Positions 14,760 to 52,395 of a stretch of 64,000 bases of DNA are shown in pieces. The position numbers and the translations under genes were made by a program. The stretch is from Prorocentrum cordatum (lineage: Eukaryota). The stretch lies in NCBI GenBank assembly GCA_963575745.1, contig CAUYUJ010000003.1, positions 372,001-436,000 of the forward strand. The letters are read 5' to 3'. Within the stretch, counting starts at the first letter, position 1. Each line of letters begins with the position of its first letter. Below the pieces are notes generated by a model. The model was not told the DNA's origin, did no database searches, and saw only the letters and a program-made list of their open reading frames with translations.

Positions 14760-15008
14760 ATGGGCAGCGGGACTTTACATGGTGGCGTCGCTTCCCCGAG
14801 TGCGTGCCATTATTCTACAATTCCGTAGCTCTTCCAAACGACAGGAGAGACAGCGGCCCGAATGCGGGCCCGGGCCAGGTCCGCGAGGGAAAGTTCTGGA
14901 TTCAGCTGGTCGTGCACACGCTGAAGGGCATGAAAGAGAGGCGGCCTTAGCGGGGGCGCTACTGCTGCCGCCCGCCAGGCTGAGGCTAGCGACAGTGCGA
15001 TTAGAGCT

Positions 15009-15047
<39 letters not shown>

Positions 15048-15049
15048 CG

Positions 15050-18472: not shown

Positions 18473-18588
18473 GTGGAGGTCGCACATGGCGTAGAGGATG
18501 TGACCGTTGGCCCAGACGCTGGCGATGTCCAGGTGGGCGAGCGTGGTCTGCGTCAGAGGTGGTCGTGCGCCGCGGCGACTACCGCTTG

Positions 18589-20065: not shown

Positions 20066-20285
20066 GCGGTAACATGGAGGTGTGTGAATCCACGAATCGC
20101 CTGTCCGACGCCAAGAGAGAGCAGAGCCACGCCAACGATATGGAGGTGCAGGATGTGAACCAATTGTTTTCTGAACGTGTGCTTCGTTCTGAGGATATGA
20201 AGCGGCACCGCAGGCAGGGCAGCCGTGGCGGGCTTGGGAAATGGAACTGCAGCTGAACGGCCAGCTGCCTTGGGAAATGGATTAA

Positions 20286-20300
20286 TTGAGCCAAAATGGC
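20286..20300 (-). other. Relict dinoflagellate spliced leader, GCCATTTTGGCTCAA
   Basis: Exact 15-nt match to positions 7-21 of DinoSL, in sense orientation at the 5' end of LINE-B. Confidence 0.85.
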
Positions 20301-20440
20301 GAACCGCATGCCGATGATAATAAAGGGACCCCCCCCCCCCTTCAGTGTTTAGAGTTGATTATCGTCGCCCTATACAAAATTCAAATTGGGCGGCGAGCGC
20401 TGAGGCCGAACTTCATTATCACCTCGAAACGCTATGTTGA

Positions 20441-20468
20441 GATAGCAACATCAAGCGATGTTGCTATC
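20441..20468. other. Perfect hairpin, 12-bp stem and 4-nt loop
   Basis: GATAGCAACATC-AAGC-GATGTTGCTATC. Confidence 0.9.
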
Positions 20469-20476
20469 CCCGCGCG

Positions 20477-21110
20477 CGCCTGAACTTTTTTTATCTCTGG
20501 GGTTGATTATCCATGGAAAGGGGAGCACATGAGCTACCCTACATGAGCACTTTAAAAAATCAATTTTCAGAAAACGCTTGTACATTAAAATTGATAGATT
20601 TGGAACTTTCCATTTTTCCGTTCTTCTTCTCTTATTATTCTTCTCTTCTTCTTCTCTTCTTATTATTTTTCTACTTTCCTCTTCTTCTTTTATATTTCTA
20701 TATGTCCTCACGCTCGCCTGAACTTGTTTATCCCTGGGGTTGATTATCCATGGAAAATGAAGCACATGAGCTACCCTACACGAGCACTTAAAAAATCAAT
20801 GTACATAAAGCGTTTGTAAATTAAAATTGATAGATTTGGAACTTTGGATTTTTCCTTTCTTCGTCCTCTTATTATTATCCTCTTCTTCTTCTTTCTTATT
20901 ATTATTATACTGTATTCTTCTTCTTTTATATTTCTCTCTGTCCCCACGCTCGCCTGAACTTTTTTATCTCTGGGGTTGATTATCCATGGAAATTGAGGCA
21001 CATGAGCTACCCTACACGAGCACTTACAACAAACAATGTTTCATAAAGCGCTTGTAAATAAAATCTAATAGATTTGAAACTCGAGATTTGTTCTTCTCTT
21101 CGTCCTTCTC
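20477..21110. repeat. AT-rich ~237-bp tandem repeat, about 2.7 copies
   Basis: CGCCTGAACTT...GGGGTTGATTATCCATGGAAA...GCACATGAGCTACCCTACA starts at 20477, 20715 and 20951. Confidence 0.92.
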
Positions 21111-22239
21111 CTCCTCCTACCATTTCTTTTATGTTATTATTTATTATTTTTATTTTTCTTTTTTATATATAGCTTCCTCCATTCCAGCGAGATAAGCCAT
21201 TGTTGAGGATATTTCTATGAAAACTAAACGCCAAGGATGTCTCAAAACGTGCTCGGCTTGGTCTCCTCTTGATCATCTCTTACTTCGAGATTATGCTGAG
21301 GTCTGCTGGGCTACTTTTATTATCTCTCCCTGAACCCCGAACTTTATTATCCCCTAGTGTTTATTCTCACGGGCATGAGGTTACGGAGGAGGAGGAGGAG
21401 GAATTGAGGAGGAGAACCCCAGTTCAGGCGAAGCCAGGGCGAGGATAAATTCGGGCGAAGATACAACGAGAAGCTCTGAGATCCGGCGGCTCTGGAACAT
21501 GTCTCGGGCGCCGCGGCCTTCTCGGAGCGTTTCGGAACGCTCCGGAAGAGCGTTCCGGAACGCTCTGGAAGGGATTTGTCCTCGTCCTAGCCCCGTCCGA
21601 CTTTGTCCTCGCACCCTCCTTGGAGCCCGGGCGTGCAGAGGCCTCCGAGATGGGGTCGGAGTAGATGGGGTCCGAGGATCACGCCTCATCGCCGATACTT
21701 CGATCGGCATACGTTACCGATGCATCGGCGATGCATCGGCGACATCGGCGATGCATCGGCGACTGCAGCGTGGAGAAAATCGGGCTCCACATCGATCCGC
21801 ATCGCTGAAGCATCGACGATGCGGTACGATCCTCCGACTCCGTCTACCTGGACCCCTTCTGGGACCCCGGGCATGGAAGGGACGCGCCCGCAGCGAGGCC
21901 TTCGCCCGCGCAACGCGCGCGCACGTGTCGCTCAGACGCGCGGCACCTCGGGCGGTCGCTGGATGCCGCTCGGGCAGCGGGCCGGGGTTGGAGGCCCCAA
22001 GGGGGAGGGCCCGGGACCAGGAAGGAGGGGCGCCAGCTCAGGAGGGGAAATTCGCCGGCCCAACGGGCCAGAGCCGTGCTGAGATCTCTGGTCACTGGAT
22101 ATGCAAATTCTAGTGTGTGCGCGCGCGGGGCCGCCACGGGGGGTCCCCGGACGAAGAGCACTCCCCGGAACCCCCGGCAATATCCCAGCACGGTTCTGGC
22201 AGACTCGGATCAGAGATGACTTCGCTTTCAGGGGCGGTT

Positions 22240-23010
22240 TTGCCCTCCTAGGGCCCCTCCGGGGCTGTCTTGGGGCTTTCTTGGGCTCCTCTTGGGCCGT
22301 CTCGGGACGATCCTGGAGGCCTCTTTGGCCATCTTGGGGGTCCAGACGGTTGAGAGCGAAAGAATCTCAGAATCCGTAGGAAACCCATGGCAAATCTACG
22401 ATTTCGGCCCCTTGCGGCCTTCTAGGGTGTCCCCATCGGAGCCGTCCTGGGGCGTTTTGGTGGCCCGTGACGCTGTCTTGGGAGCATCTTAGGCTGTCTG
22501 AGCGCGGTATTGGGCCATCTCGGGGCTGTCTCTGGTCGCCTCGGGGCCTCCTTGGGCCGTCTCGGAGCTCTTCTGGGGAGCTCCAGTGCCGTTTCGGAGC
22601 CCTCCAGGCGCCCTCCGGTGCCGTTTCGGGCTCTCGGGGGGGCTCGGGGAGCCATGGGCCTTCGCAAACCCGAAAAAATCCTTGCAGCCTTATTGAATGG
22701 ATTCGCGCCCCGGAGCCATACAATCACCCCCCAAACAATTACATAAGATTCGCGCTCCCAGGGCCATAAACCTTCGTAAATTACACTTGCGTCCTCGAGG
22801 CCACAATCTCTCGCAAATTACACCGTATTCGCGTCCCCAAGGACCCTGGTAAATTAGACAATAATTGCCCCCCCCGAGGCCATAAACCTTTATAAATTAC
22901 ACAACAGTTGCGCCCCCGAAGCCATAAACCCTTGTAAATTACATAATAACTGCGTCCCCGAAGCCATCGCGCCACCGAAGCCATGATCCCGAGTAAATTA
23001 ATATTGGCCC
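22240..23010. repeat. Inverted CCCAAGA-family repeat followed by ~45-bp GCCATAAACC...GTAAATTACAC units
   Basis: TCTTGGG-rich tract, then GTAAATTA(C)A anchors recurring about every 40-45 bp from 22700 to 23010. Confidence 0.65.
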
Positions 23011-29329: not shown

Positions 29330-29845
29330 GTTGCCAGGTCTTGGGTCTTGGGGCCCTCTTTGAAGCCTCTGGGGGCCCCAGGCCTCTTGGGGCCATCTTG
29401 GGGAGCATCAACCAAAAGGAGGGAGGGCCCCAAGTCGGCCCAGAGGGGCCTCCAAGACGGCTTCCGACTGCGTCAGACGGGCCAGGAATGCCCCAAGACT
29501 GCCAACAAGACCCCCCGATATGCCCCCAAAGGCACTCAAGAGGCCCAAGGAAGCTCCCAACATGCCTCCAAAAAGCTCCCAGGAGGCTCCCAGGATGCCC
29601 CAAGACTGCTCCCAGACGCTCCCAAGATGCACCCTTTTCCTCCTCTTCCTCTTCCTCCTCTTCCTCCTCCTCCTCCCGATCTTCCCCGCAATCCTCCCCC
29701 CAAATGCTCCACGAAAGGTTTCTATAACGGTTGGGGGGGGGGCACATGGCCCGATTGTTTGGCAGAGCTCTTGCAGCAACGCTCGGACACATGGGCGATT
29801 CCAAAAGGCAAGGGGCGGCGGTGATTTACCGTAGGCGTCTTCTAT
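29330..29845. repeat. CCCAAGA-family interspersed repeat with terminal motif
   Basis: Motif composition as at 860-1380; terminal motif at 29812-29845. Confidence 0.55.
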
Positions 29846-30279: not shown

Positions 30280-31403
30280 AGGCGGAGGGGGCGCGCTAGC
30301 TGGCTGGCGGGCGGGGTGATGCGGAGGGGGCGTGCGGGATGTGGGGAAGCGGCGCCGTGCCCAAATAAAAGGGTCGGGGCTGAAGGGGCGGTGCCGTGCC
30401 GAAATACAGGTGTCGGGGCGGAGGGGGCGCGTTTGCTGGTGGGTGGGGGGATGCGGAGGGGGCGCGTGCGGAGTGGCGCGTTGGCTGGTCGGTGGGGGAT
30501 GCGGCAATAAAAGGGGTCGGGGCGGACTCTGGCTGGCTGGCGGGGGGATGTGGAGGGGGCGCGTGGGATGGGGGGCGGTGCCGTGCCGAAATACAAGAGT
30601 CGGGGCGGAGGGGGCGCGCTGGCTGGTGGATGGGGCGATGGAGGTTGCGCTCGCGATGGGGGGGCGGCGCCGTGCCGAAATTAATGGGTCGCGGCGGAGG
30701 GGGCGCGCTGGCTGGTGGGTGGGGCGATGCAGAGGGGACGCTCGGGATGGCAGGGGTAATGGCATGCCGAAAGGTCGGGGCGGAGGGGGCGAACTTGATG
30801 GTGGGTGGGGGGATGCGGAGAGGGCGTGCGGGATGGGGAGTGCGGTGCCATGCCGAAGTAACAACTTCGGGGCGGAGGGGGCGCACTGGCTGGTGGGCGG
30901 GGTGATGCGGAGGTGGCGCGCGGGATTAAAGGGGGGGCGGTGCCGTGCCGAAATAAAGGGGTCGGAGCGGAGGGGGCGCGCTGGCTGGTGGGCGGAGGGA
31001 TGCGGATGAAGCGCGCGGGGTGGGAGGGGGGCGGTACCGTGCCGAAATAAAAAAGGGTCGGGGCGGAGGGGGCGCGCTGGCTGGTTAGTGGGGTGATACC
31101 AATGGGGGCGCTCGGGATGGGGGGGCGCTGCCGCGCCGAAAGAAACAAGTCGGGACGGAGGGGGCGCGCTGTCCAGTGGGTGGGCTGACGCGGAGAGGGC
31201 GCGCGGGATGGGGTGGAGGGGTGGAGGGGGCGCGCTGGTTGGCGTGTGAAGTGATGCGGAGGGGGCGTGCGGGATAGGAGGAGGAAAGGGGTGGTGGTGG
31301 TGCCGTGTCGAAATAAAAAATGGGGGCGGAGGGGGCGCGCTGGCTGGTGGGCGGGGTGGGTGGGGTGATGCGGAGGTGGCGCGCGGGATGGGGGGGCGGC
31401 GCA
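30280..31403. repeat. G-rich minisatellite, ~85-90-bp unit, about 12 copies
   Basis: Recurrent GGCGGAGGGGGCGCGCTGGCTGG...GATGCGGAG...GGGATGGGGGG...GCCGTGCCGAAA. Confidence 0.9.
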
Positions 31404-33124: not shown

Positions 33125-34275
33125 CGGAGGCCCGTCGGAGGTCTCTGGAGGCCTCCTGCTCCCGCTCTTGGGCCCATCTAGGGTCTGTTCTGAAAGGTCT
33201 GGGGCTGACCTGGGCGCCTCTTCGGCAGTCTTGGGGCCTTCTTGGCCCGTTTTGGGGCCGTTTTGGGAGCCTCTTCAGTGGTCTTGGGGCGGTCTGGGGG
33301 GCCTCTTCGGCCGTGCTGGAGCGTTGGAAGCATGAAGTGGTGAGAAGGCCAAAACCTTCGAACAAAAACGATGAACATTTACGATTTTAGGTTCTCCAGG
33401 CGCTCTCGGGAGGCCTCCTGGAGCTCTCGTGAGGTCTCATGGAGGCCTCCTGGGAGCCTGGAGAGCCGCCCGAAAGCTATCTTGGGATGCTTGGGAGCGT
33501 CTCGTGCCTTCCGTTTACGTTCTGCAATTGTTTGGGATCGTCTTGGGCTGTCCTCAGGCGTTTTGGGGGTCGCCAGGGGCCGGATCGCGCGGTAATGGGA
33601 GCGTTCCGCAGATGTTCCCGCGAGGTGTGGGGTTCCCTGGAGGGGGGGGGGGCGTCGTTGTTGAACGTTTAAAAAGGGTATTTTTGGACTTACATGTTGT
33701 TTCAAGTTCCTCGGTCTTGGAGCGTTGGAAGCAGGAAAACGTGAGAAGGCGAATGACGTAGAAAAAGCATTGAGCATCAACGATTTTACCCTCTCCGGGC
33801 TCTCTCGGGACGGCTTTCGAAGCTCTCATGGGCTGTTTTGGGGGCCTCGTCGGAGTTTTTTGTTGGGCCTCTCCAAAGGTCTGGGGTGTGTTGGGGGCCA
33901 CTGGGAGGTTCCGGAGTCCTCTCGGAAGTCTCTGGAGGAGGGCTCCCGCTCTTGGGCGCATCTTGAGCCGGTTCTGGGATGGCCTTGGGCGCCTCTTCGG
34001 CAGTCTTGGGGCCTTCTTGGCCCGTCTTGGGGCCGTTTTGGGAGCCTCTTCAGCGGTCTTGGGGCGGTCTGGGGGGCCTCTTCGGCCGTGTTGGAGCGCT
34101 GGAAGCATCGAATGGTGGGAAGGCCAAAACCTTCGAACAAAAACAACGAAAATTTACGATTTTAGGTTCTCCAGGCGCTCTCAGGAGGCCTCCCGGTGCT
34201 CTCTTGAGGTCTCTTGGAGGCCTCCTGGAGCCTGGAGAGCCGCCCGAAAGCTATCTTGGGATGGTCGGGAGCGTT
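33125..34275. repeat. Two ~360-bp direct copies (about 33125-33500 and 33910-34275) of a CCCAAGA-family element in inverted orientation
   Basis: Near-identical blocks, for example GGGCGCCTCTTCGGCAGTCTTGGGGCCTTCTTGGCCCGT and GAAGGCCAAAACCTTCGAACAAAAAC. Confidence 0.9.
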
Positions 34276-36744: not shown

Positions 36745-37960
36745 ATCTCTCAGGCGAGGCGTTGGTTTCAGTACTCCCAAGAGGGGTGGGTGGGCGGGGG
36801 GGGGGGGGGCAGGGGCGGGGACACTCCAAAACTCGCGCCCACATTGTGGGGATGTCTCACGCAGTTTGCCTGTTCCTGTCCCCCCAGCATCCTTTGCTGT
36901 GAAACAGAATGCAATGATGCCTCAGGCGAGGCGCTGGCTTCAGCACTCCCAGGGGGATGTGGTGCGGCAGGGGTTGGGATACTCCGAAGCTCGCGCCCAA
37001 ATTGTGGGCATGTCTCAGGCGGTTTGCCCGCTTCTGCCCCCAACATCCTCTGCTCTCGGAACAGATTGGGGATGTCTCGTGCGAGGCGTTAGTTTCAGCA
37101 CTCCCATTGTAGGGGGGTGCGCCAGGAGTGGAGACACTCCAAAACTCAAGCCCAGATTGTGAGGATGTCGTAAGCGGTTTGCCCGTTTCTGCCCCCAAAA
37201 TCCTTTGCTCTCGGAGCACACACACACACACACTATGGGGCTGTATCGAAGCGCTGGCTTCAGCACTCACAAGGGGGGGGGGACGAATGGCGCCAGGCGG
37301 GGGGGGACCCTCCGAAACTTACGCCCAATGAGTGGTGACATCTCAAACGGTTTGCCTGTTTCTGCCCCCCCCCCCACATCCTTTGCTGTCTGAGCAGGTT
37401 GTGGGGATGTCCCAAACAAAGGACCAGCTTCAGCTCTCTCCAGGCTGGAGCCAACAGGGTGGGGGACACCGCAAAACTCGCGCCCAGACCGCGGGGATGT
37501 CTCGGGCGGTTTGTTCGTTTCTGCATCCCTACCATCCTTTGATGTTGGGGAGATTGTGCAAAAAATCAGAAAGAAGCGCTGTTTTCGGCACTTCCACTGG
37601 TGAGCCGTCATGCGCATACCTCACGGGCCCGTTCACGTTCAGGTTGTGGTGGTGTCTCAGGCGGTTTGCTTCTTTCGGCCTCATGAACTTTCTGTTGGTG
37701 ATCCAATGCGCACCGTGATATAGCAGGTGTGGCATTTGGGCACCCCAAGGGGGGCCGCCAAGGGTCAGGGCACTCCAAGATTCGCGCCGATATTGTGAGG
37801 ATGTCTCAGACGGTTTACCTGGTTCGCCCCCCCAGGCTATTTCCTTTTGGTGGTCCAAACTGCCTGCGATTTTGCAGGTGTGGCATTTGGGCAACCCACC
37901 GGGGAGCCGCCAGGGGTGGGGGCACGTTATTGTTCGCGCACTGGTTGTGAGGATGTCTCT
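36745..37960. repeat. Degenerate ~160-bp tandem repeat, about 7 copies
   Basis: GCGAGGCG.TGG.TTCAGCACTCCC...ACACTCC.AAACTCGCGCCC..ATTGTG.GGATGTCTC...CGGTTTGCC recurs. Confidence 0.85.
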
Positions 37961-40484: not shown

Positions 40485-41575
40485 CGTATGATAAAAGCGC
40501 ATGGTCAGGATGCAAGGGCCTTGGAGGGCCATATCAACGTTATTCGACCGAGATTGGCCAGCGAAAGTCGCTAAGGATGGGCCGAAGGGGCAGGGATGCA
40601 AGGGCAGCCTTCGAAAACTGCTCATCCTTACTATGCGGGTTGACTGTGGATGATGACAAAGCCAAGATTAGGACAAAAGCTGGTGAGGATAAATCGAGGA
40701 TCTCTGAGATTTGGCGGTTCTGGAGGATGTCTCGAGCGCCGCGGCCTTCTCAAAGCGTTCTGGAACGCTCTGAGGGCGTTCTGGAACGGCTCTGGTACAG
40801 ATTTATCCTCGTCTTAGCCCCGCCCGATAGATGCGACTCACAGAGCTCAGCACTCGCGTCCTTCCGACTCTTGGCCAATTCGTCCTCGAGCTCGGCGACG
40901 CGCCCCCTGTCAGTGCTGGACTCTTCCCCGAACTTCGCCACCTGCTCCTGGCAGAAAAATGGACGACACTAAAAGCAAGGGCGCCTCGCGCTTCGCGATG
41001 CGCGAATAGCTTCGCACTCTCGCGCCGCTCCCCGTGGAAGAAGTGGAGGACGAGGAGGAATCGGAGGCGAATCGCTAACAAAAATCGCGCCGTCGAGGGC
41101 GCCCTTGTTCAAGGGAAGCCAACACAACTTGGGTCTGCCAGAGCTCAGGCAACTCGACCCTCAAGCCTGTATCCTCTCCGCCCTCGTCTTATCTGAGACC
41201 ACTTGCTTCCACATGCTCCAAGACAGGCGCCCCTCGTCATCCTCGTGCTTTGTACGGTTCACCCGTATAATACGGATGCGCGGCAAGGATGCAAGGGCCT
41301 TGGAGGGCCATATCAACGTTATTCGAACGAGATTGGCAAGCGAAAGTCGCTAAGGATGGGCCGAAGGGGCAGGGACGCAAGGGTAGCTTTGGAAAACTGC
41401 TCATCCTTACTATGCGGGTTGACTGTACATTAAGACGAAGCCAGGACCAGGATAACTTCGGGTGAGGATGAATCGAGGATGTCTGAGATCTGGCGGTTCT
41501 GGGGGATATCTAGGGCGCTGCGGCCTTCTCAGAGCGTTCCGGAACGCTCTGAGGGCGTTCTGGCACTTTCTGAGG
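40485..41575. repeat. ~310-bp direct duplication (about 40485-40795 and 41265-41575) flanking exon A6
   Basis: GGATGCAAGGGCCTTGGAGGGCCATATCAACGTTATTCGA...GAAAACTGCTCATCCTTACTATGCGGGTTGACTGT is in both copies. The distal part also resembles 21475-21570. Confidence 0.9.
40861..40947 (-). CDS. Coiled-coil repeat gene, exon A6 (EQVAKFGEESSTDRGRVAELEDELAKSRK)
   Basis: 87 nt, CAG acceptor, AAG|GACGCGAGT donor. Confidence 0.75.
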
Positions 41576-41599
41576 GCGTTGTGGACAGTCCAGGCGTTC

Positions 41600-41755: not shown

Positions 41756-44700
41756 CTGGCGTGGATGGGGAGACGAGTCCTCGCATCCTCGCCCTCATCG
41801 TCCTCCACCTCCTCCTCGTCGTCGTCCACCTCCTCGTCCTCCTCCTCTCCTCCTCTTCGTCATCCTCTTCTCGTCGTCCTCCATCTCCTCGTCCTCCTCC
41901 TCGTCCTCGTCCCTCACCTCCTCCTCCTCCTCTTCCTCCTCCTCCTCCTCCTCCTCCTCCTCCTCCTCCTCGTCCTACTCGTCCTCCTCCTCGTCGTCCT
42001 CCTCGTCCTTCTGGCCCCCGCCAATTGGGAGGCGTATGACGCGACGAGGAAAGCGGCACCGCGTATTGACAGGCACACGCGCACAGAGCCGACGGAATCC
42101 TGGGCGACGGCGCGCCCGCCCCGACGGGAGCGGCTCGCCGCGAGGGAAAGACGAAGAGGAGAGGGATCAGGAGGAGGAGGAGAAGGAGGATTGGACGCTC
42201 CTCAAGGAGGGAGACAGGGAGAGTTAGAGATCCTGGCCACGGAAAAAAACCCTGCGCAAGCACCGTCGGAGAGGAACTTGTTGTCACCATGGCTGGGGGG
42301 CGCCATCTCAGCCAGGGGCCCGCGGCAGGTGCTTGCCCAGGTAAAAACCCGTTAGACCAGATCTTCCTCGTCGAGCGGGTCGGGGTCGCGCCGCTGAGCC
42401 ACTCGGCCGAGCTGCCGAGCCCGCTCTTCGTTCAAACCAAAACATTGGCAGACAGCCTGGAGGCAGAGGACGGACTGGCCCGCAAACCTGGGAGCCCTCC
42501 AAAAACATTCCGTCGTGATTTCTGTCATGACTAAAGGAGGTCTGGGCCCGGCCAGGAGGAGGGCCCGGAGGGTCTGCCGGAGACGGGAGGAGCAGGGGGC
42601 CGCCCCCCCCCCCCCCCCCCAATGGGAGCCGACGCCGACGGGGCTCTGGGTCCTCCGCCTTCCACACCCGCGTGCTCGTCCTCGTCCTCTGTCCTTCGAC
42701 GCCTCGTCTCCTGCTCTGCACTCGTGCATTCGCCCCTGGCTGTCCTCCCCTCCCGCCCCCTTGCCTCCTCTCCCCACCCTCCCTCCACAACCTCTCTGTA
42801 CATGACACGCGTCGGCGGACAGGGAACAAATCAGCGCAGTGGGAAGATGGGTGTGAGGAGTGAAAGGTAATTATGGCGCGGGCCCACCTGGCTTGCGATG
42901 GATGCTACCACCTTCTCTCCGCTGAGGGTGGTCGCGGAAGAACCCGCGCCCCTCCGGGCACGGCTTTCCGTACCACACAAGATGTCAATCATTTGTCCTT
43001 CCTGTGGTTGTTTCAATCGGAACGTTTTCGGCGCTTCGAATCGATGTTGTCGCTGCAGCGTTGGCCGCATGCTAGGATCGGCATTTTGCTCCCACCGTTG
43101 AGAAAAGCGCTCTCGCCCGAGCGCAGGCCACTTGTCTGTATCCGAGTCACTGCTCATCGTTGTCGCTCCCATTCTTTCCCCTCCTCTGCCTCCCCCTGGT
43201 CCTTCTGTTCCTCCCGCTCCTTCTGCTCCAGCTCTTGCTGCTGCTGTTCGTCCTCTTCCTCCTCTTTCATCATCCACCTCCTTCTCCTCCTTTTGCTCAT
43301 CCACCACCTCCTCCTCCACATCCAATGTACGCTGCTCCAAAGTCCGAATGCGCAACACACGAAGGGTTCATCGTTGGAACTCCAGGTCCGCTGAGACATG
43401 CGTCGGCGGACAGAGAAAGGGGGGAGGCCCCGAGTAAAAGTACCGCTTGAGCGGGGTGGGGCACGTCGGGGGCGGCGCTGCGCTGCGATCGCCACTGTAT
43501 ACGCGCGAGCACCAGCATGGAGGGGAAGGTCCAACCCCCTCCCACTACGTTCGATGGTTTCCGTTCCAGGGGGGGGTGGGGGGGGGGGAGGCGACGGTTA
43601 CGCGCCAAATAATACAGACAAGTCAATCCCGGGGTAGGATGCCAGATTATGGCGCGAACGAACCTACGGTCGGCAACTTCTTCTTAGCGTGTCGCGGCGG
43701 CGGCCCCAGCGACACACTATGTCCTGCAAGGGGATAGCGTGTTGCTCCGCTCCGCGGGGCGGGAGGCTGGGGAATGCTCGGGGCGTTGACGCTAGAGGTC
43801 CAGGAAGTGGATAGCGTATCGCTCCGAAGCGTGGTGGGCCAGAACCCGCGTTGCGACACGCTAAGCCACGGTTCCCGACCGTAGCTTGCCTTTCACCAGG
43901 ACGAGCTTTATCCTGAGTCGTGTTCTGACAGTCCTGGGGCCCGCGGAGGGCCCTAGGAGCCCGAAAGTGGCGGAAAGCCTTCATGGCGAGCCGTCCCTCA
44001 ATGGCGGGCCTGTTCCTTCGTGGCGAGCCTCCTCTTCCAAGGCGAACCTGCAGGACCCCCTTCCTCTGGTTGAGGGGCAATGATAGGGGAGGGCTGGCAT
44101 AAGAGGGGAAACATTGACCTGGAATCGGCAATACGTTGCCAACAGGTTGGCGAAGGGCCCCCGATCGCAAACCCCGACGTTCCTGGGCTGGGTGGGGCTA
44201 TCGGGCCCCCATCGGCGATGAGTGGACGCTTGGGAATCGATGCATCCCCCCCTATGCCTGTCCCCCCCGCCCTAGCGTTACCTCTCCATTTGGACGCCTG
44301 GGTTACTCAGGATAACTGCGGTCCAGGGTAACTCTAGTTTGGGCCCCCGAGGCGCGACTCTGTAGCTACCCCTGACTACCCCCAACCCAGATGATTCGCG
44401 AATGTTGGACGCCCGAGATATCCGGGATAATTGCGGTCCGGGGTAACTCTGGATTGGGCCCCCGGGGCGCGAATTTGTAGCTATCCCTGACCACCCCCAG
44501 TCCGAATGCTTCGGAGATCTGATCCACGGCGACCCGGCGTTCAGTCGCGGCGACCCGGCATTCAGTCGGGCTGATGGACTCCGGAACGTTAGATGAAGGA
44601 CAAAAGCCCCCTCTCTGGCACCAGAGGAGAAACTGGGCGCACGAGGAAGACCAGGAGAGCAGCCACGGAATGACCTAAGGAACAGCGACCCCCTTCCGAA

Positions 44701-44769
44701 CCCAAAGAGGTCCCTGGCCCAAAGGGCGCATGCAATGCGCGTCCGCCCCGCGGCTCCGCCTTGAGCGAA

Positions 44770-45241
44770 GGGTAATCGCCTCCCCTCTGGGGGGGACAGG
44801 CTTGAACCCAAAAGGGAACCGGAGGAGGTGAGGTCCCCCCCCGATCACTCAGAGCGGTCACCATCTGAGCGTCTTGACAAAACGCGAGAATGATGATTCG
44901 AAGCTCTCGTCGTAGTCGTCGTCGTCAGTCGTCGTCGTCGTCGTCGTCCTCCTCGGAGTCCTCCGTCGTCGTAATCGTCGTCCTCGTCATCGTCGTCCGT
45001 GGTCGTCGTCGTCGTCGTCGTCCATCGTGGTCGTCGTCCGTCGTCGGCCGTCGTCGTCGTCGTCGTCGAGGTCGACGTCGTCCGTCGTCGTCGTCATCGT
45101 CGTCGCAGTCGTCGTCCTCCGTCGTCGTCGCCGACGTCGTCGTCCGTCGTCGTCGTCGTCGTCGTCCGTCGTCGTCGTCGTCCGTCGTCGTCGTCGTCGT
45201 CGTCGTCGTCCGTCGTCGTAGTCCACGGTCGTGGTTGTCGT

Positions 45242-45297
<56 letters not shown>

Positions 45298-45663
45298 CGT
45301 CGTCGTCGTCGTCGTCGTCGTAGGTCGTCGTCGTCGTCGTCGTCCATCCTCGACGTCGCCTTCGTCGTCAATCGTCCGTCGTCGCCGTCATCGTCGTGGT
45401 CATCCGTCGTCGTCGTCGTCGTCGTCGTCCGTCGACCGTCGTCCGTCGTAGTCTTCGTCGTCGTCGTCCTCATATCTCAGCGTCTTGAGCCCCTCTGGGG
45501 GGGACGTGGCTTGAGCCCAAAAGGGATACGGAGGAGGTGAGGTCCCCCCCCCGATCACCGAGAGCGGTAACTATCGCAGCGTTTTGACACGCCGCAGCCC
45601 TGATGATTGGGAGCTCTCGTCGTAGTCGTCGTCGTCCGTCGTCGTCGTCGCCGTCGTCCGTCG

Positions 45664-45719
<56 letters not shown>

Positions 45720-48440
45720 CGTGATCGTTATCGTCGTCGTCGTCCGTCGCCGCCGTCGTCGTCGTCCGTCGTCGTCGTCCGTCGTCGTCGTCGTCGTCAT
45801 CGTTAACGTCGTCGTCCGTTGTCGTTGTTGTCATCGTTGCTGTTGTTGTTTTCCGTTGTTGTCGTCGTCGTCATCGCCGTCGTTGTCATCGTCGTCGTCG
45901 TCGTCCGTCGTCGTCGGCCACGGTCGTGGTCGTCGTCGTCATCGTCCTCCGTCGTCGACGTCGTCGTCGTCTGTCGTCCTCGTCGGCGTCGTCGTCCGTC
46001 GTCATCGTCGTCGTCGTCGTCCGTTGTCATCGTCGTCGTCGTCCGTCGTCGTCGTCGTCGTCACCAGTCGTCGTCGTCGTCGTCGTCGTCGTCCGTCGTC
46101 GGCGGCGTCGTCGTCGTCTTTTATCCCCGTCGTCGTCGTTGTCGGCGTCGTCCGTCGTCGTCGACGTCGGCGTCGCCGTTGTCGTCCGTCGTCCGTCGTC
46201 ATCTTCGTCGTCGTCGTCGCCCGTCGTCGTCGTCTTTGTCCTATCTCAACGTCTTGAGCCCCTCTGGGACGGGACGTGGCTTGAGCCTAAAAGGGATACG
46301 GAAAAGGTGCGGAAACCCCCTATCACCCAGAGCGGTCACAGTCCCAGCGTCTTGACAAACCGCAGCCCTGATGATTCGAAGCTCTCGTCGTCGTCGTCGT
46401 CCGTCGTCTTCCGTCGTCGTCGTCGTCCGTCGTCCGTCGTCCGTCGTCGTCGGCGTCGCCCGTCGTCGTATGCGTCGTCGTCGACGTCGTCCGTGGTCAT
46501 CGTCGTCGTCCGTCGTCCCCGTCGTTCTCGGTCGTCGTCATCGTCGTCGTCGTCCGTCGTCCTCGTCGTCGTCCATCTTCGTCGTCGTCGTCGTCGTAGC
46601 CCATCGTCGTCGTCGTCGTCCGTCGTCGGCGGCGTCGTCGTCCGTCGTCTCCATCGTCGTCGTCGTCGTCGTCGTCGTCGGCGTCGTCGTCGTCGTCGGT
46701 CGTCCGTCGTAGTTTTCGTCGTCGCCGTCTTCGTCATCGCCGTCTTCGTCGTCGTCGTCGCCCGTTGCGTCGTCGTCCTATCTCAGCGTCTTGAGCCCCT
46801 CTGGGAAGGGACGTGGTTTGAGCCAAAAAGAGATACGGAAGAGGTGAGGTCCCCCCCCTATCACCCAGAGCGGTCACGCCATCAGCGTCTTGACAAACGG
46901 CAGCCCTAATGATTCAAAGCTCTCGTCGTCGTCGTCGTCACCGTCCGTCGTCGTCGTCATCGTCGTCCGTCGTCGTCTGTCGTCGTCGTCGCCTCCGTTG
47001 TCCGTCGTCGTAGTCATCGTCTTCGTCCGTCGTCCTCGTCGTCGTCGTTGTCGTCGTCCGTCGTCGTCGTCGTCGTCGTCGTCGTCCGCCGTCGTCGTCG
47101 TCGTCGTCTTCGTCGTCGTCGTCCGTCGACGTCGTCATCGTCGTCGTCGTCCGTCGGCGTCGTCGTCGTCCGTTATCGTCGACGTCGTCGTCGTCCTTGT
47201 CCGTCGTCGTCGTCGACGTCGTCCGTCTTCGTCCTCCGTCGTCGTCGTCGTCCTCGTCCGTCACTCTCATCGTCGCCCATCGTCGTCGTCGCGCCGTCGT
47301 CCGTCGTCGTCGTCTTCGGCGTCGTCGTCGTCGTCCGTCGTCGTCGTCGTCGTCGTCGTCGTCCGTCGTGGTCGGCGTCGTCGTCGTCATCGTCCGTCGT
47401 TTACGTCGGCAACGTCGTCAATCGTCGTCGTCCATCGTCGTCGTCCGTCTTCGTCGGCGTGGGCGTCGTCGCCCGTCGTCGTCATCGTCAGTCGTCGCCG
47501 TCGTCCGTCGTCCGTCGTCGGCGTCGTCGTCGTCGTCGGTCGTCTCCGTCAACGTCGTCGTCGCCGTCGTCGTCCATCGTCGTCGTCGTCGTTGCTGTCC
47601 GTTGTCGTCTTCGTGATCGTCGACGCCCGTCCTCGTCGCCGTGAACGCCCTATTTTTGCATCTTGAGCCCCTCGGGGGGGGGGGGGGGCGTGGCTTGAGC
47701 CGTCGTCGTCGTCGTCGTCGTCGTCCGTCGTTGTCGTCATCGTCGTCGTCGTCATCGTGGGCAGCCTCGTCGTCGGCCTCGTCCGTCGTCGTCGTCGTCG
47801 TCGTCGTCGTCCGTTGTCGTCCACGTTCGTCGTCGTCGTCGTCCTCCTCGTCCTCCGTCGTCGTCGTCGGCGTCGTCGTCGTCCGTCGCCCTCGTTGTCG
47901 TAAATCGGCGTCGTCATCGTCGTCGTCGTCGTCCGCGTCGTCATCGACGTCGTTGTCGTCCGTCGATGTCGTCGTCGTGCGTCGTCGTCCGTCGTCGTCG
48001 TCGTCATCGTCGCCCGTCGTCGTCGTCGTCGTCCGTCGTCGCCGTCGTCTACGGTCGTCGTCGTCGCCGTCCTCCTTCTCCTCCGTCGTAGTCGTCGTCG
48101 TCGTCGTCGTCCGTCACTCTCGTCGTCGCCCATCGTCGTCGTCGCGCCGTCGTCCGTCGTCGTCGTCGTCGGCGTCGTCGTCGTCGTCCGTCGTCGTCGT
48201 CGTCGTCCGTCGTGGTCGGCGTCGTCGTCGTCATCGTCCGTCGTCTCCGTCGGCAGCGTCGACGACGTCATCTGTCGTCGTCGTCGTCGTCCGCCGTCCG
48301 TCGTCGTCGTCTTCGTCGTCGTCGTCGTCGTCGTCGTCCGTCGTCCGTCGTCGTCGTCGTCGTCCGTCGTCTTCGTCGGCGTCGTCGTCGTCCGTCGTCC
48401 GTCGCCGTCTTTGTCGTCGTCGTCGCCCGTCGTCCGTCGT

Positions 48441-48481
<41 letters not shown>

Positions 48482-48889
48482 CGTCGTCCGTCGTCGTCGT
48501 CGTCGTCGTCGTCCGCCGTCTTCGTCGGCGTCGTCGTCGCCGTCGTCCGTCGTCCATCGACGTCGTCGTCACCGGTCAACGTCGTCCTCCGTCGTCTCCG
48601 TCGGCGTCGTCGTCGTCATTGTCGTCGTCCGTCGTCGTCGTCGTCGTCGTCGTCGTCCGTCGTCCGTCGCCGTTTTCGTCGTCGTACTCGTCCGTCGTCG
48701 TCGTCGTCCTATCTCAGCGTCTTGAGCCCCTCTGGGGGGGGGGGTCATGGCTTGAGCCCAAACGGGATACGTCGGAGGTGAGGTTCTCCCCCCTCTTACC
48801 CAGAGCGGTCACTATCTCAGCGTCTTGACAAACCGCAGCCCTGATGATTCGAAGCTCTCGTCGTAGTCGCCGTCGTCGTCTTCCTCGTC

Positions 48890-48922
<33 letters not shown>

Positions 48923-49716
48923 TGGTCGTCGTCGTCGTCCGTCGTCTTCCGTCGTCGTCCGTCGTCGTCGTCGTCGTCGTCGTCGTCCGTCGTCGTCGTC
49001 GTCGTCGTCCGTCGTCGTTGGCGCCGTCGCCGTCGTTCGTGGTCTCCGTCGTCTCCGTCGTCGTCGTCGTCCATCATCGTCGTCGTCGTCACCTTCCGTC
49101 GTCGTCGGCGTCGGCGTCGTCGTCGGCGTCTTCCGTCTTCCGTCTCAGTCCGCCGTCGTCGTCGTCTTCCGTTGTCGTCGGCGTCGTCGTCGTCGTCCGT
49201 CGTCGTTGTCCGTCGTCCGTCGTCTTCGTCGCCGTCGTCGCCCGTCGCCGTCGGCTTTCTATATGAGCGTCTTGAGCCCCTTTGGGGGGCTGCGGGGGGA
49301 CGTGGCTTGAGCCCAAGAAGGGTAAGGTGAGGTCCTCCATCATTAAACAGAGCGGTCACTATCCTAGCGCCTTGACAAACCGCAGCCCTGATGATCTCGT
49401 CGTAGTCGCCGTCGTCGTCTTCCTCATCCGTCGTCGTCGTCGTCGTCCGTCGTCGTAGTCGTCGTCGTCATCGTCGTCCATGGTCGTCCGTCGTCGGCGT
49501 CCGTGGTCGTCCGCCGTCGTCGTCGTCGTCGTTGTCGTCGTCGTCTCTGTCGGCGGCGTCGTCGTCGTCGTAGTCGTCCGCCCTCCGTCGTCGTCGTCGT
49601 CGTCGTCGTCGTCCGTTGTCGTCGTCGTCGTCCGCCGTCGTCGTCGTCGCCGTCCGTCGTCGTCATCGTCGTCGTCTCCGTCGGCGTCGTCGTCGTCATG
49701 TTCGTCGTCCGTCGTA

Positions 49717-49749
<33 letters not shown>

Positions 49750-50335
49750 CGTCGTCCGTCGCCGTCTTCGTCGTCGTAGTCGTCCGTCGTCGTCGTCGTC
49801 CTATCTCAGCGTCTTGAGCCCCTCTGGGGGGGGGGGCATGGCTTGAGCACAAACGGGATACGTCGGAGGTGAGGTCCTCCCCCCTCTTACCCAGAGCGGT
49901 CACTATCTCAGCGTCTTGACAAGCCGCAGCCCTGATGATTCGAAACTCTCGTCGTCGTCGTCGTCCGTCGTCGTAATCGTCGTCGTCGTCGTCGTCGTCC
50001 GTGGTCGTCGTCGTCGTCCGTCGTCTTCCGTCGTCGGCGTCGTCGTCGTCGGCGTCTTCCGTCTTCCGTCTCAGTCCGTCGTCGTCGTCGTCGTCGTCTT
50101 CCGTCGTCGTTTGATGCGTCGTCGTCCGTCGTCGTCGTCCGTCGTCCGTCGTATTCGTCGTCGTCGTCGCCCGTCGTCGTCGTCTTCCTATATGAGCGTC
50201 CTGAGCCCGGGGCAGCGGGGGGAGGTGGTTTAAGCCCAAGGGGGGTACGGAGGAGGTGAGGTCCTCCATCATTAACCAGGGCGGTCACTATCTCAGCGTC
50301 TTGACAAGTCGCAGCCCTGATGATTCGAAGCTCTC
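44770..50335 (-). repeat. Array of nine ~150-bp DinoSL-like units separated by variable (GTC)n tracts
   Basis: Units at about 44770-44908, 45471-45618, 46241-46386, 46778-46924, 47650-47701 (truncated), 48709-48858, 49259-49397, 49801-49950 and 50188-50335. Confidence 0.9.
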
Positions 50336-51200
50336 GTCGTAGTCGCCGTCGTCGTCTTCCTCGTCCGTCGTAGTCGTCGTCGTCCGTCGTCGTCGTCGTC
50401 GTCCGTCGTCGTAGTCGTCGTCGTCGTCGTCGTCCATGGTCGTCGTCGTCGTCCGTCGTCTTCCGTCGTCGTCGTCGTCGTTGTCGTTGTCGTCGTCGTC
50501 GTCGTCGTCCGTTGTCGTCGTCGTCGTCGTCGTCGTCCGTCGTCGTCGTCGGCATCGACGTCGTCGTCGTCCGTCGTCATCGTCGTCGTCGTTGTCGCCG
50601 CCCGTCGTCGTTGTCGTCGTCGTCCGCGGTCGTCGTCGTCGTCGTCCGTCGTCCTCGTCGTCGTCCGTCGTCGTCGTCGTTGTCGTCGTCGTCCGTCGTC
50701 GTCGTCCGTCGTCGCCTTCGTCGTCATGGTCGTCCGTCGTCGTCGTCGTCGTCGTGGTCGTCGTCGTCGTCGTCCGTCGTCGTCGTCGTCTACCGTCGTC
50801 GTCGTCATCGTCCGTCGTCTCCATCGGCGTCGTCGTCGTTGTCTGTCGTCGTCGTCGTCCGTCGTCCGTCGTCGTCTTCCTCGTCGTCGTCGCCCGTCAT
50901 CATCGTCGCCGTCGTCGTCGTTGTCAGTCGTCGCCGTCGTTGTCGTCGTCGCCGGCCGTCGTCGTCATCATCTTTGTTGTCATCGTCGCCGTCCGTCGTC
51001 GTCAACGTAGCCGTGTTCGTCGTCGTCGTCGTCCGTCGTCTTCGGCGTCGTCGTCGTCCGCCGTCTCCGTCGTCGTCGTCGTCGGTCGTCGTCGTCTTCG
51101 TCTTGGTCTTCGCCCGTCGTCGTCGCCAGCGTCGTCGTCGTCGTCGTCCGTCGTCGTCGTCGTCGTCGTCCGTCGTCGTCGTCGTCGTCGTCGTCGTCCA

Positions 51201-51233
<33 letters not shown>

Positions 51234-51600
51234 ATCGTCATCGTCGTTGTCGTCGTCGCCGTCCGTCGTCGTCATCATCGTTGTCGTCATCGTCGCCCGT
51301 CGTCGTCGTCGTCGTGTTCGTCGTCGTCGTCCGTCGTCGTCGTCGTGCGTCGCCGTCCGTCGTCGTCGTCGTCGTCGTCGTCCGTCGTCGTCGTCGTCGC
51401 CGTCCGTCGTCGTCGCAGTTTTCGTCGTCCGTCGTCGTCGTCGTCGTGCGTCGCTGTCTGTCGTCGTCGTCGTCGTCGTTGTCCGTCGTCGTCGTCGTCG
51501 TCGTCGTCCGTCGTCGTCGTCGTCGTCGGTGTCGTCGTCGTCGTCGTCGTCACCATCATCATCGACAGCATCATCATCGTCGTCGGCATCGTCGGCATCA
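44908..51600. repeat. Very long imperfect (GTC)n/(GAC)n microsatellite with frequent GTCC interruptions
   Basis: Seen directly. It is the source of all poly-S/V/R/D/T ORFs in this interval. Confidence 0.98.
45510..45532 (-). other. Best-preserved DinoSL-like sequence in the array, TCCGTATCCCTTTTGGGCTCAAG
   Basis: 20 of 22 positions are identical to TCCGTAGCCATTTTGGCTCAAG, with one inserted G. Confidence 0.8.
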
Positions 51601-51959
51601 TCATCAGCAGCATTATCATCAGCATGCATCTTCATCCTCATCCTCGTCCTCATCCCCATCCTCTCTCTTATGGTCGTCTTGGCCGTTGCGTCAACACCAT
51701 AGGCATCGTTGTCTCGACACACACATCGCCAATCTCATCATAGCCACCACCATCGCCATAGTCGTCGCCGTGAGCAGCAGCATCGTCATCGCCCTCCTCT
51801 TCATCATCATCGTCATCGTCGCCGTCTCTCGCCATCACCAACATCAACAGATCCACCACCACCACCGCTCACCACCACTCACCGCTCACCACTCGCTGCC
51901 ACCATTTACCATCGCTCGGACGCCCATTCCCCGTGCATGTGTCGGTTGCGTGCGTGCTC

Positions 51960-52161: not shown

Positions 52162-52226
52162 CTGGAGGATCCCCAACCGTAGTGTCCTCGTCGTCCTCGT
52201 CGTCCTCGCTGTCGTCCTCTTCGTCG

Positions 52227-52257
<31 letters not shown>

Positions 52258-52395
52258 ACTCCTCGTCGTCCTCGCCGTCGTCGTCAACGTCTCCGCAGCC
52301 CTGCGGCCAGCCTGGGCCAGGAAGATCGACTTTCCACTGTTGAGACTGCGGCAAGTGCTCTCGACTCTCGATTGTCGCTCACTGCTGGGGCTTTA

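Follow-up and report, generated by a model that had tools for sequence, protein, structure and literature searches.

A non-coding compound repeat array in a dinoflagellate-type genome carries a probable spliced-leader relic

In a dinoflagellate-type genome, a non-coding block of repeats 6.8 kb long, in which a locally duplicated 147-base unit is embedded in a GTC simple repeat, raises the question of how a sequence resembling DinoSL, the 22-nt spliced leader of dinoflagellates, came to be repeated there. The block lies in a 64-kb stretch of DNA, referred to here as the window. It had originally been predicted to be either a non-coding, SL-headed (GAC)n retroposon or an SL-derived satellite amplified in tandem. 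Our analysis indicates that the block looks like ordinary repeat growth rather than a new kind of mobile element. We consider it probably a non-coding compound satellite, in which a DinoSL relic was caught in a (GTC)n array that grew by unequal exchange and slippage.

Architecture of the array

The whole compound array (44750-51551) consists of imperfect (GTC)n on the plus strand, equivalent to (GAC)n on the minus strand, in which eight full units and one truncated unit are embedded, all in minus-strand orientation; its left edge is degenerate. TRF reports a single (TCG/GTC)n array at 44907-51551 with a period of 3, 2122.7 copies and 68% matches. A period of 25 scores equally, and autocorrelation over the array is 0.546 at lag 25 versus 0.217 at lag 24. 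Scanning triplet content reveals islands of non-GTC sequence at 45473-45616, 46238-46380, 46782-46919, 47632-47696, 48713-48859, 49249-49399, 49805-49944, and 50189-50335, as well as at the left edge up to 44905. With unit 6 as the query, blastn over the 64 kb recovers eight copies that are complete or nearly so and a remnant of 44 nt (47658-47701), all on one strand. Successive spacers between units measure 567, 626, 395, 716, 1010, 407, 408, and 245 bp, and the array ends in a unit-free (GTC)n tract of 1217 bp (50335-51551), the right end of which grades into in-frame ATC/GTC-type triplets. The predicted alternation of nine units with (GTC)n tracts of 0.25-1.0 kb is therefore accurate, with eight full copies and one truncated copy of a ~147-bp unit and spacers of 245-1010 bp.

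Individual copies differ in completeness and in their distance from DinoSL. Unit 1 (44782-44907) is an edge copy whose homology to the other units begins exactly at 44782, and its SL-like 23-mer (44801-44823) is 6 edits from DinoSL. The 23-mers of unit 2 (45475-45617), which reads TCCGTATCCCTTTTGGGCTCAAG at 45510-45532, and of unit 3 (46244-46385), at 46280-46302, are each 3 edits away. That of unit 4 (46781-46923), at 46817-46839, is 4 edits away, and this unit also has the array's longest exact match to DinoSL, the 11-nt word TTTTGGCTCAA. Unit 5 (47658-47701) is a truncated remnant, 9 edits from DinoSL, that retains only the part 3' of the SL-like motif in the minus-strand sense together with a degenerate 17-mer repeat; the remainder is deleted, and the GTC tract adjoins directly. 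Motifs 5 edits from DinoSL occur in unit 6 (48712-48858; motif at 48751-48773), unit 7 (49266-49395; 49306-49328), whose 5' end is shortened by deletion, and unit 8 (49804-49949; 49842-49864). Unit 9 (50195-50334), 86% identical to unit 7, has its motif at ~50229-50251, 7 edits from DinoSL. Alignment gives 98% identity between units 6 and 8 (96.6% by blastn), unit 1 shares 68-74% identity with the other full units, and the full units apart from unit 1 and the 6/8 pair are 76-88% identical among themselves.

Units and spacers were duplicated together and preserve no reading frame

Self-matches that include both unit and spacer are found in the region 48630-49955, where 48630-48864 matches 49722-49955 at 97% over 235 nt with an offset of 1092. 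Further matches pair 48805-48920 with 50281-50397 (95.7%), 49395-49466 with 50332-50403 (95.8%), and, in pure spacer, 47238-47354 with 48091-48207 (97.4%). Overall, the duplicated segments are 72-235 nt long, are offset by 853-1476 bp, and share 95.7-97.4% identity. Different spacers have interruption patterns in common, and therefore units and flanking spacers were copied together as blocks of DNA, not repeatedly inserted. These matches, in one orientation, uphold the earlier suggestion of amplification in tandem.

Reading frame is not preserved in the array. Pure GTC runs are separated by 295 interruptions, of which 87 keep the frame, 196 move it by +1, and 12 move it by +2. Since about two-thirds of them shift the frame, the tract is non-coding, as had been proposed. 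Translations of the array cycle through runs of D, R, and T, with a reading frame that differs between units. Pfam domains were absent from the 45 long open reading frames (ORFs) scanned on both sides of the array, except for LINE endonuclease and reverse transcriptase.

The repeated motif resembles DinoSL more closely than expected by chance

The consensus of the units on the minus strand is TCCGTATCCCTTTTGGGCTCAAG, 3 edits from the 22-mer DinoSL. All four 23-mers quoted in the original prediction (units 1 to 4) match their stated minus-strand coordinates exactly. CCA comes next in each, as described, except in unit 1, where it is CCT, and (GAC)n begins ~40 nt on. Across both strands of the whole window, a full dynamic-programming scan places seven sites at no more than 5 edits from DinoSL, every one of them on the minus strand. 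The array accounts for six, with 3 edits in units 2 and 3, 4 in unit 4, and 5 in units 6, 7, and 8; the statement that most units carry a DinoSL-like motif thus holds at a loose threshold (6 of 9 within 5 edits) but not at a strict one (2 of 9 within 3 edits). The seventh site (20286-20308, 4 edits) lies at the 5' end of a LINE whose ORFs encode endonuclease and reverse transcriptase, which is the context of a genuine relic.

The chance of such a match had been left to be estimated. Only 33 of 3,600,000 random 147-mers of unit composition come within 3 edits of DinoSL on either strand (9.2e-6), and the chance expectation at this distance is roughly 0.004 per 64-kb window. So close a likeness of the 23-mer to DinoSL is not what chance would give. 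Extrapolation of the random-147-mer rate to ~130-149 windows of the genome gives ~0.5 expected matches at 3 edits, which makes a chance resemblance unlikely without excluding it in full. Outside the array, GGCTCAAG is not overrepresented (2 seen versus 2.67 expected). In our judgment, the motif very probably derives from DinoSL.

About 30 nt downstream of the motif, CCAGAGGGGCTCAAG is 4 edits from the classic 15-nt relict, which starts with CCA (P ~0.015 per random 45-mer, same strand). Stacked relicts in this order are seen in recycled transcripts, according to excerpts of two reports (PMC5585692; PMC6616646). Song et al. 2017 take an exact DinoSL word of at least 9 nt as their criterion (excerpts of PMC5585692); such a word occurs in one of the nine copies here (the 11-mer of unit 4), and an 8-mer occurs in six. 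No ORF with a start codon lies downstream of the relic, which is also away from any unit boundary, so that it falls outside the published working definition of a retrogene relict.

The motif is no better conserved than its unit

Following AAG, none of eight copies has a GT or GC donor, and CC stands there in all eight. Because of this, the motif does not represent an ordinary SL RNA gene, in agreement with the original prediction. It is also no better conserved than the rest of the unit, with a mean majority fraction of 0.859 over the 23 SL-like columns versus 0.882 over 119 other columns. Fold energies of the units do not differ from those of shuffles (z-scores of -1.10 to +2.19). The RNAalifold consensus fold (-10.2 kcal/mol; covariation term +1) has one compensatory pair among 23 and indicates no conserved RNA structure, and Rfam and ARAGORN give no matches on the array (no 5S by Rfam). 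The motif appears to have no present function.

Origin of the array

A compound satellite of this kind would have started from a complex ~147-bp founder unit within an imperfect (GTC)n/(GAC)n microsatellite of drifting reading frame. Before amplification, the minus strand of the founder would have contained a single worn, full-length spliced-leader copy in DNA form, already with 3 differences from DinoSL and no splice donor. This relic, presumably of RNA origin, might come from a trans-spliced transcript, as the 5' end of its retroposed and perhaps twice-recycled copy, or could stem from a retro-copied or decayed SL-like (pseudo-SL) locus. Unit and flanking repeat would then have been copied head to tail as blocks through unequal exchange or replication slippage, after which the microsatellite spacers would have grown and shrunk independently. 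The relic would have multiplied passively along with the block.

We considered whether each period could instead be a non-coding retroposon, with an SL head, ~40 nt, and a (GAC)n body or tail, belonging to a dispersed family and accumulated by repeated or stacked retroposition. In every full unit, a full-length SL-like motif does precede same-strand (GAC)n by ~40 nt. However, the motif starts at position 93 of the ~147-nt consensus, 92 nt inside the conserved unit. The motif's upstream flank and the sequence after the (GAC)n tract reveal no target-site duplication around the segment between them. The common interruption patterns of the spacers point to DNA-level copying of units with spacers, and no further unit copy was found in the 64-kb window (blastn) or in three public collections (metagenome, viral, and prokaryote-genome). 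The SL-headed retroposon of the original prediction is not supported by these observations, and we regard it as quite unlikely. A different role for mobile elements is suggested by unit 6, in which an exact 17-nt direct repeat, CTATCTCAGCGTCTTGA on the plus strand, occurs at 48709-48725 and 48812-48828. Its two copies, 103 nt apart, are exact in units 6 and 8 and degenerate in the remaining units; matches with at most 3 mismatches number 14 versus 0.11 expected, all within the array. Between them sits an 86-nt core with a 10-nt inverted repeat (48727-48736 and 48799-48808) adjoining the direct-repeat copies, and the homology of unit 1 stops exactly at the inverted-repeat start (44782). The unit could thus be a composite of insertions with the SL-like motif as cargo or target sequence. 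In one version, an 86-nt hairpin-ended element would have entered a 48-nt island of the tract and duplicated 17 bp of target; in the other, on the plus strand, the same 17-mer would flank a 5'-truncated retroposon whose tail is (GTC)n. Rather than heading an mRNA copy, the motif could then have come as part of a small insertion, and the second relict would span the insertion junction and be a coincidence. Yet a 10-nt inverted repeat with one mismatch in 147 nt is, by our estimate, not clearly beyond chance; its arms lack covariation, and fold energies equal those of shuffles. Moreover, the candidate differs from introners as defined in excerpts of PMC10666404, which have direct repeats of 3-5 nt; a further 86-nt core turned up neither in the window nor in the public collections, and the phase of the repeat cannot be fixed within a periodic array. 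We find such a composite unlikely.

Alternatively, the relic might belong to pseudo-SL RNA genes in tandem, decayed or still transcribed and spaced by microsatellite, comparable to the donor-less SL-like genes of Fugacium kawagutii. SL RNA genes naturally form tandem arrays (mentioned in PMC8045281), and a ~147-nt unit with 92 nt upstream of the motif and no donor recalls the F. kawagutii transcripts (excerpts of PMC6616646). Nevertheless, the 3 differences from DinoSL and the donor loss are common to most copies and therefore predate amplification, so that the array was never a working SL gene array in its present form. The motif's ordinary conservation and the lack of a conserved fold also speak against this origin, as does the weakness of the second relict here compared with the several near-perfect relicts of published SL-like genes (excerpts of PMC6616646); we judge it distinctly unlikely. 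That the unit is a mere satellite monomer resembling DinoSL by accident gains some support from the two copies of nine within 3 edits, from a longest exact common word of 8 nt in most copies, and from the expectation extrapolated to ~130-149 windows. It is very unlikely, however, given the rarity of the match for the unit itself, the extension of the match to both ends of the 22-mer, and its position upstream of, and on the same strand as, the second weak relict. Finally, the geometry of a relict ~40 nt upstream of (GAC)n would suit a decayed tandem retrogene array for an Asp-rich protein, each period comprising an SL relict, a 5' UTR, a (GAC)n ORF ending in ...DYDERASNHQGCGLSRR*, and a 3' end. 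In units 6, 7, and 9, the conserved tract end reads DEEDDDGDYDE... and then a stop in one frame, and in-frame acidic stretches occur both at 52184-52285 and where the tract ends on the right. But no unit has an ATG opening into the Asp frame, two-thirds of the interruptions shift the frame, indels between units are not multiples of three, and the open frame differs by unit, making this origin highly improbable.

Comparison with known systems

Classical satellite DNA forms higher-order repeats, and compound satellite/microsatellite arrays are also a known type. The array resembles them in its single orientation, growth by block duplication, young copies beside old ones, degenerate edge copy, and lack of coding capacity; it differs in comprising nine units at one locus so far and in having a monomer with a recognizable motif derived from a host RNA. 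Microsatellite-associated or microsatellite-tailed non-LTR retroposons are likewise a known kind. Like them, the array has a complex segment that directly adjoins a simple repeat, plus a direct repeat whose 17 nt match the size of a target duplication, whereas its spacers were co-duplicated with its units, no dispersed copies were found in the window or the public collections, and the window has no reverse transcriptase partner with the same tail.

Relict DinoSL sequences in retroposed ("recycled") dinoflagellate genes were reportedly described by Slamovits & Keeling 2008. Such relicts are also treated by Song et al. 2017 (PMC5585692). As far as excerpts of that report go, the array shares with them a DNA-encoded, slightly mutated 22-nt leader and possibly an older second relict downstream starting with CCA, but its relic lacks a recognizable ORF downstream, sits in a tandem non-coding unit inside a microsatellite, and contains the 9-nt exact word in just one copy of nine (PMC5585692). 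In F. kawagutii, SL gene transcripts of 103-292 nt include sequence upstream of the SL, and thirteen SL-like genes are expressed despite having neither donor nor Sm sites (Song et al. 2019, excerpts of PMC6616646). The unit falls within this length range and likewise has extra upstream sequence and no GU/GC donor after AAG; the F. kawagutii genes, in contrast, carry several near-perfect relicts and are transcribed (excerpts of PMC6616646), whereas the array has one 3-edit copy per unit and (GAC)n spacers. DinoSL and DinoSL-5S rRNA genes form tandem arrays as well (mentioned in PMC8045281). Although it has no canonical exon, donor, or 5S and its spacers are 0.25-1.0 kb of microsatellite, the present array resembles these in that a short SL-bearing unit is repeated head to tail (PMC8045281, as mentioned there).

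Results

The array is an imperfect (GTC)n tract on the plus strand, (GAC)n on the minus strand, with embedded units of ~147 bp that are numbered 1 to 9 from left to right. The tract runs from 44907 to 51551 (TRF period 3, 2122.7 copies, 68% matches), and a period of 25 scores equal to a period of 3. Its sequence departs from that of a plain microsatellite: lone extra C's turn up roughly every 25 nt, producing a steady +1 phase drift, and A makes up only 2 to 4% of the plus strand. In a triplet-content scan the tract is interrupted by complex-sequence islands of 138 to 151 bp and by one of 65 bp. Blastn with unit 6 as the query returned eight full or near-full copies and one 44-nt remnant (unit 5, 47658-47701), all on a single strand, and no copy outside the array within the 64-kb window. 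The alternation of units with GTC spacers of variable length holds as originally predicted, with inter-unit spacers of 245 to 1010 bp and a terminal unit-free tract of 1217 bp. All four 23-mers that had been read as SL-like motifs were recovered exactly in place on the minus strand, with (GAC)n beginning about 40 nt past the motif as proposed; the CCA said to follow the 23-mer is found in general, with CCT in unit 1. Assembly of four sequencing runs, in each of which the share of sampled window words was at most 0.13, yielded almost only short simple-repeat contigs, derived from unrelated material, and has no bearing on the whole array or its expression. The one useful piece is a 221-nt contig from run X6 that is exact over 44663-44883 and covers only the left flank and part of unit 1.

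On the plus strand, each full unit is built from a 17-mer (CTATCTCAGCGTCTTGA), an 86-nt core, a second copy of the 17-mer, a 31-nt segment (CAAACCGCAGCCCTGATGATTCGAAGCTCTC), and the GTC tract. The core is bounded by CCCCTCTGGG at its start and CCCAGAGCGG at its end, which form a 10-nt inverted repeat that by our own estimate is not clearly beyond chance when taken alone, and the SL-like motif lies mid-core in reverse complement. The 10-mer CTCAAGACGC was found only in the array in a window scan. The paired copies of the 17-mer match exactly in units 6 and 8 and are degenerate in the remaining units, and the 17-mer has 14 matches within 3 mismatches, against 0.11 expected, all inside the array. 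Since the pair recurs across the units and is confined to the array, it was a founder feature. In unit 1, the left edge copy, homology starts at 44782, precisely where the inverted repeat begins, and sequence inspection located a short imperfect piece of the 17-mer 15 nt outside that point.

Several minisatellites in the window have periods of 11, 21, or 32 nt on CCCAAGAGGCC- or CCAAGACGCC-type motifs, in the plus orientation at 23-67, 2524-3042, and 29548-29634 and in the opposite orientation at 22511-22645, 33211-33444, and 33984-34094. They resemble the CTCAAGACGC box of the unit weakly. A link between the unit and the CCCAAGAGGCC-type minisatellites was rejected at 80 to 86% identity over ~20 nt (E of 0.3 to 1 or weaker).

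We then compared the units with DinoSL, the 22-nt dinoflagellate spliced leader, as printed in the available text of PMC8045281 and PMC5585692. Across the eight full units, the majority consensus includes TCCGTATCCCTTTTGGGCTCAAG, which differs from the 22-mer by two substitutions and one inserted G; an ungapped search allowing up to 3 mismatches gave no matches because the match includes an indel. A full dynamic-programming scan of both strands detected seven sites within 5 edits of DinoSL in the window, all on the minus strand: the motifs of units 2 and 3 (3 edits), unit 4 (4 edits), and units 6, 7, and 8 (5 edits), and one site outside the array at 20286-20308 (4 edits). Units 1, 9, and 5 are 6, 7, and 9 edits away, respectively. 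Exact DinoSL words comprise an 11-mer in unit 4, the 8-mer GGCTCAAG in six units, and 6-mers in two. The three differences from DinoSL are common to most copies and thus were present already in the founder.

When 147-mers were simulated with unit composition, 33 of 3.6 million contained a match within 3 edits on either strand, which puts the chance of the originally predicted DinoSL match at 9.2e-6 per random 147-mer. The corresponding expectation is ~0.004 chance matches per window and, by extrapolation, ~0.5 over 130 to 149 windows of this genome. This background model is fair because the DinoSL 3' octamer is not overrepresented outside the array (2 seen versus 2.67 expected). Given the low chance rate, the frequency of genuine relicts (worn DNA copies of DinoSL) in the genome, and the presence of one more within the window, it is very likely that the motif descends from DinoSL. 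A second, weak relict candidate, CCAGAGGGGCTCAAG, lies ~30 nt downstream of the motif and is 4 edits from a 15-nt relict starting CCA, a match with a P of ~0.015 per random 45-mer on the same strand.

The leader-like site outside the array, CGGTTCGCCATTTTGGCTCAAT (20286-20308, minus strand), contains a 15-nt exact DinoSL word, and a G12 run lies ~22 nt upstream of it. It marks the 5' end of a series of adjoining minus strand ORFs (8326-20358) that have an apurinic-type endonuclease domain (Exo_endo_phos, 16248-17843, E = 5.7e-11) and a reverse transcriptase match (RVT_1, 14775-16247, E = 1e-05, below the Pfam cut-off). We therefore identify 8326-20358 as a LINE headed by a leader relict. Blastn between the unit and the 5' end of this LINE gave no similarity beyond a homopolymer run. 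Long-period tandem arrays occupy 20467-21106, 6547-7100, 30529-31213, and 36799-37215 (periods of 236, 244, 92, and 155 nt), the 236-nt-period array directly adjoining the LINE 5' end.

Among 45 long ORFs on both sides of the array compared with Pfam, only the two domains of the LINE gave matches. As the ORFs apart from the LINE lack Pfam domains, no host gene or "host strand" can be named, and the array sits in repeat-rich DNA without a recognizable gene. The unique-looking left flank (~43600-44450) matches many short contigs from runs X1, X2, and X6 at ~85 to 90% identity and is probably a dispersed repeat family; its ORFs contain no Pfam domains. Another dispersed repeat, with a palindromic GCGTTCCGGAACGC-type short tandem motif at 21525-21571 and 41527-41580, forms the pairs 21431-21600 with 40659-40827 (79%) and 40507-40787 with 41286-41566 (89%), and is possibly the end of a hairpin-ended element.

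In a functional SL RNA gene, a GU or GC donor comes immediately after the canonical 22-nt exon, and the intron part has a conserved stem-loop fold or an Sm-type U-rich site. The array exon is 3 or more edits away from the canonical DinoSL. A GT or GC after the AAG is absent from all eight copies, which have CC instead (AAA replaces AAG in units 4 and 9), in agreement with the original prediction that these are not ordinary SL RNA genes. No U-run was seen after the motif in the unit copies. The motif is kept no better than the rest of the unit (conservation of 0.859 over its 23 columns versus 0.882 over the other 119). A structural RNA was ruled out: single-sequence folds have no extra stability relative to shuffles (z of -1.10 to +2.19), and the RNAalifold consensus is weak (-10.2 kcal/mol, with an unfavorable covariation term of +1 and a compensatory change in 1 of 23 pairs). 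Origin from a known RNA family or a tRNA was likewise ruled out by Rfam, with no matches at the gathering score and only sub-threshold low-complexity ones at E up to 1, and by ARAGORN, with no genes. Since the donor is absent, conservation of the motif is ordinary, and neither folding nor Rfam nor ARAGORN lends support, the unit is not a working SL RNA gene, and the motif bears no sign of selection. For comparison, the known SL genes in the available text of PMC6616646 have GT or GC after the final AAG. The SL-like or pseudo-SL genes described there (Song et al. 2019) lack donor and Sm sites, as do the units with their SL-type sequence; those genes carry several full or partial SLs per locus and are transcribed.

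As defined in the available text of Song et al. 2017 (PMC5585692), a retrogene relict matches DinoSL exactly over 9 nt or more and lies no more than 500 bp upstream of a same-strand protein-coding ORF. Only unit 4 contains such a match, and the consensus is 3 edits from the 22-mer. No protein-coding ORF lies downstream of the relict, where we found frame-drifting (GAC)n whose Asp frame lacks a start codon, and a relict-DinoSL retrogene was rejected on this ground. Pure GTC runs are separated by 295 interruptions, of which 196 shift the frame by +1 (81 of these are a single extra C), 12 shift it by +2, and 87 are in frame. Base autocorrelation is highest at lag 25 (0.546), compared with 0.217 at lag 24. 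All six frames are open only because GTC/GAC repeats contain no stop codon. Translations cycle through D, R, and T runs on the minus strand and S, V, and R runs on the plus strand, and the units, which differ by indels within homopolymer runs, are crossed in different frames. Protein coding is ruled out by these drifting translations and by the interruptions that shift the frame, and the array is noncoding, as had been proposed. Adjoining the drifting array, 52184-52285 and 51528-51655 on the minus strand carry in-frame acidic D/E-rich triplets with no phase shifts; these may be what is left of an acidic coding repeat that gave rise to the tract, or merely degenerate tract edges.

Satellites with higher-order structure consist of head-to-tail copies that share one orientation and whose units and spacers have been duplicated blockwise, and the array has this organization. 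In a stringent self-comparison of the window by blast, 48630-48864 recurs at 49722-49955 (235 nt, offset of 1092), 48805-48920 at 50281-50397, and 49395-49466 at 50332-50403, and a pure spacer segment, 47238-47354, recurs at 48091-48207. The duplicated segments are 95.7 to 97.4% identical and extend into the spacers, whose particular interruptions they reproduce. Unit 6 is 98% identical to unit 8, the other full units except the edge copy are 76 to 88% identical, and unit 1 is 68 to 74% identical to those. The shared spacer interruptions and the unit identities together indicate that units and spacers were copied jointly as DNA blocks at different times. This history was not one clean duplication, since units 7 and 9 are only 86% identical versus 95.8% for their flanks. 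The tandem amplification originally predicted is thus borne out by the single orientation and the repeated unit-plus-spacer blocks, and the array very likely grew by tandem duplication.

Discussion

The array is real and carries a real decayed leader copy. Unit and spacer were copied together as blocks, repeatedly, as in higher-order satellites, while the microsatellite parts changed length, and we propose that the relict was multiplied passively within a compound satellite. On balance, we consider this whole account, of a decayed leader relict passively amplified in a compound satellite, to be probable.

The original prediction also offered a reading in which each unit is an SL-headed (GAC)n retroposon. 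SINEs and other nonautonomous retroposons occur as dispersed copies that are individually flanked by target-site duplications, and a SINE has a head from tRNA, 5S, 7SL, or snRNA or an internal pol III promoter. The unit has no copy elsewhere in the window. A unit pattern that matches 7 of the 9 local copies found no locus in contigs from metagenomes, viruses, or prokaryote genomes, and two further unit patterns gave 0 loci in viral contigs; these collections are poor in dinoflagellate DNA and weigh weakly. With neither dispersed copies in the window and these three collections nor a tRNA or Rfam head, a SINE or nonautonomous retroposon was rejected, in what is a partial test. The joint duplication of units and spacers as DNA blocks also argues against the SL-headed retroposon, which we regard as improbable. 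Introners, as defined in the available text of PMC10666404 after Farhat et al., have inverted repeats of 8 to 20 nt and direct repeats of 3 to 5 nt near both ends and lie within an intron of a gene. The unit has a 10-nt inverted repeat, but its direct repeat is 17 nt long and no recognizable gene surrounds it, and an introner or hairpin MITE was therefore rejected.

The 17-mer pair admits several readings because its phase cannot be fixed in a periodic array. If it flanks the 86-nt core, the core could be an insertion with a target duplication of 17 bp; if it flanks the 31-nt head and (GTC)n, these could be a 5'-truncated plus-strand retroposon whose tail is the simple repeat; a third possibility is that the pair arose by internal duplication. 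Its origin bears on the route by which the leader arrived, whether heading an mRNA copy or carried within a small element. More active roles seem very unlikely to us: the units could be small transcription units that produce (GAC)n RNA from a leader-derived TTTTGG promoter-like core, as proposed for DinoSL relicts, a cluster of variant, donor-less SL-like RNA genes, or a lineage-specific family of SL-headed noncoding retroposons homing to (GAC)n. If it existed, a donor-less SL-like gene cluster with microsatellite spacers would be a by-product or decoy of trans-splicing.

DinoSL relicts are the standard marker of RNA-derived DNA in dinoflagellates and are usually counted only upstream of genes. 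Under the account of passive amplification, the array would represent a relict carried into, and multiplied within, noncoding satellite DNA, and would be a concrete example of RNA-derived fragments seeding tandem repeats in very large genomes. Such arrays can inflate genome-wide counts of "DinoSL sequences" or "retrogenes".

In the literature we searched, of which our coverage was incomplete, we found no description of a DinoSL relict multiplied within a satellite or microsatellite. Nothing in our observations suggests a new mechanism or function, and the array is a further case of processes already known. Among the kinds closest to it are ordinary satellites with higher-order repeats. As far as the available parts of the following sources describe them, the relict DinoSLs of retroposed genes (PMC5585692) are likewise DNA-encoded, worn, and possibly stacked leaders, whereas the array has no gene downstream. 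Tandem arrays of SL genes (PMC8045281) share its tandem organization, but the exon of the array is not canonical and has no donor. The SL-like genes of F. kawagutii (PMC6616646) resemble the units in donor loss and in size, whereas the array has only one fair leader copy per unit.
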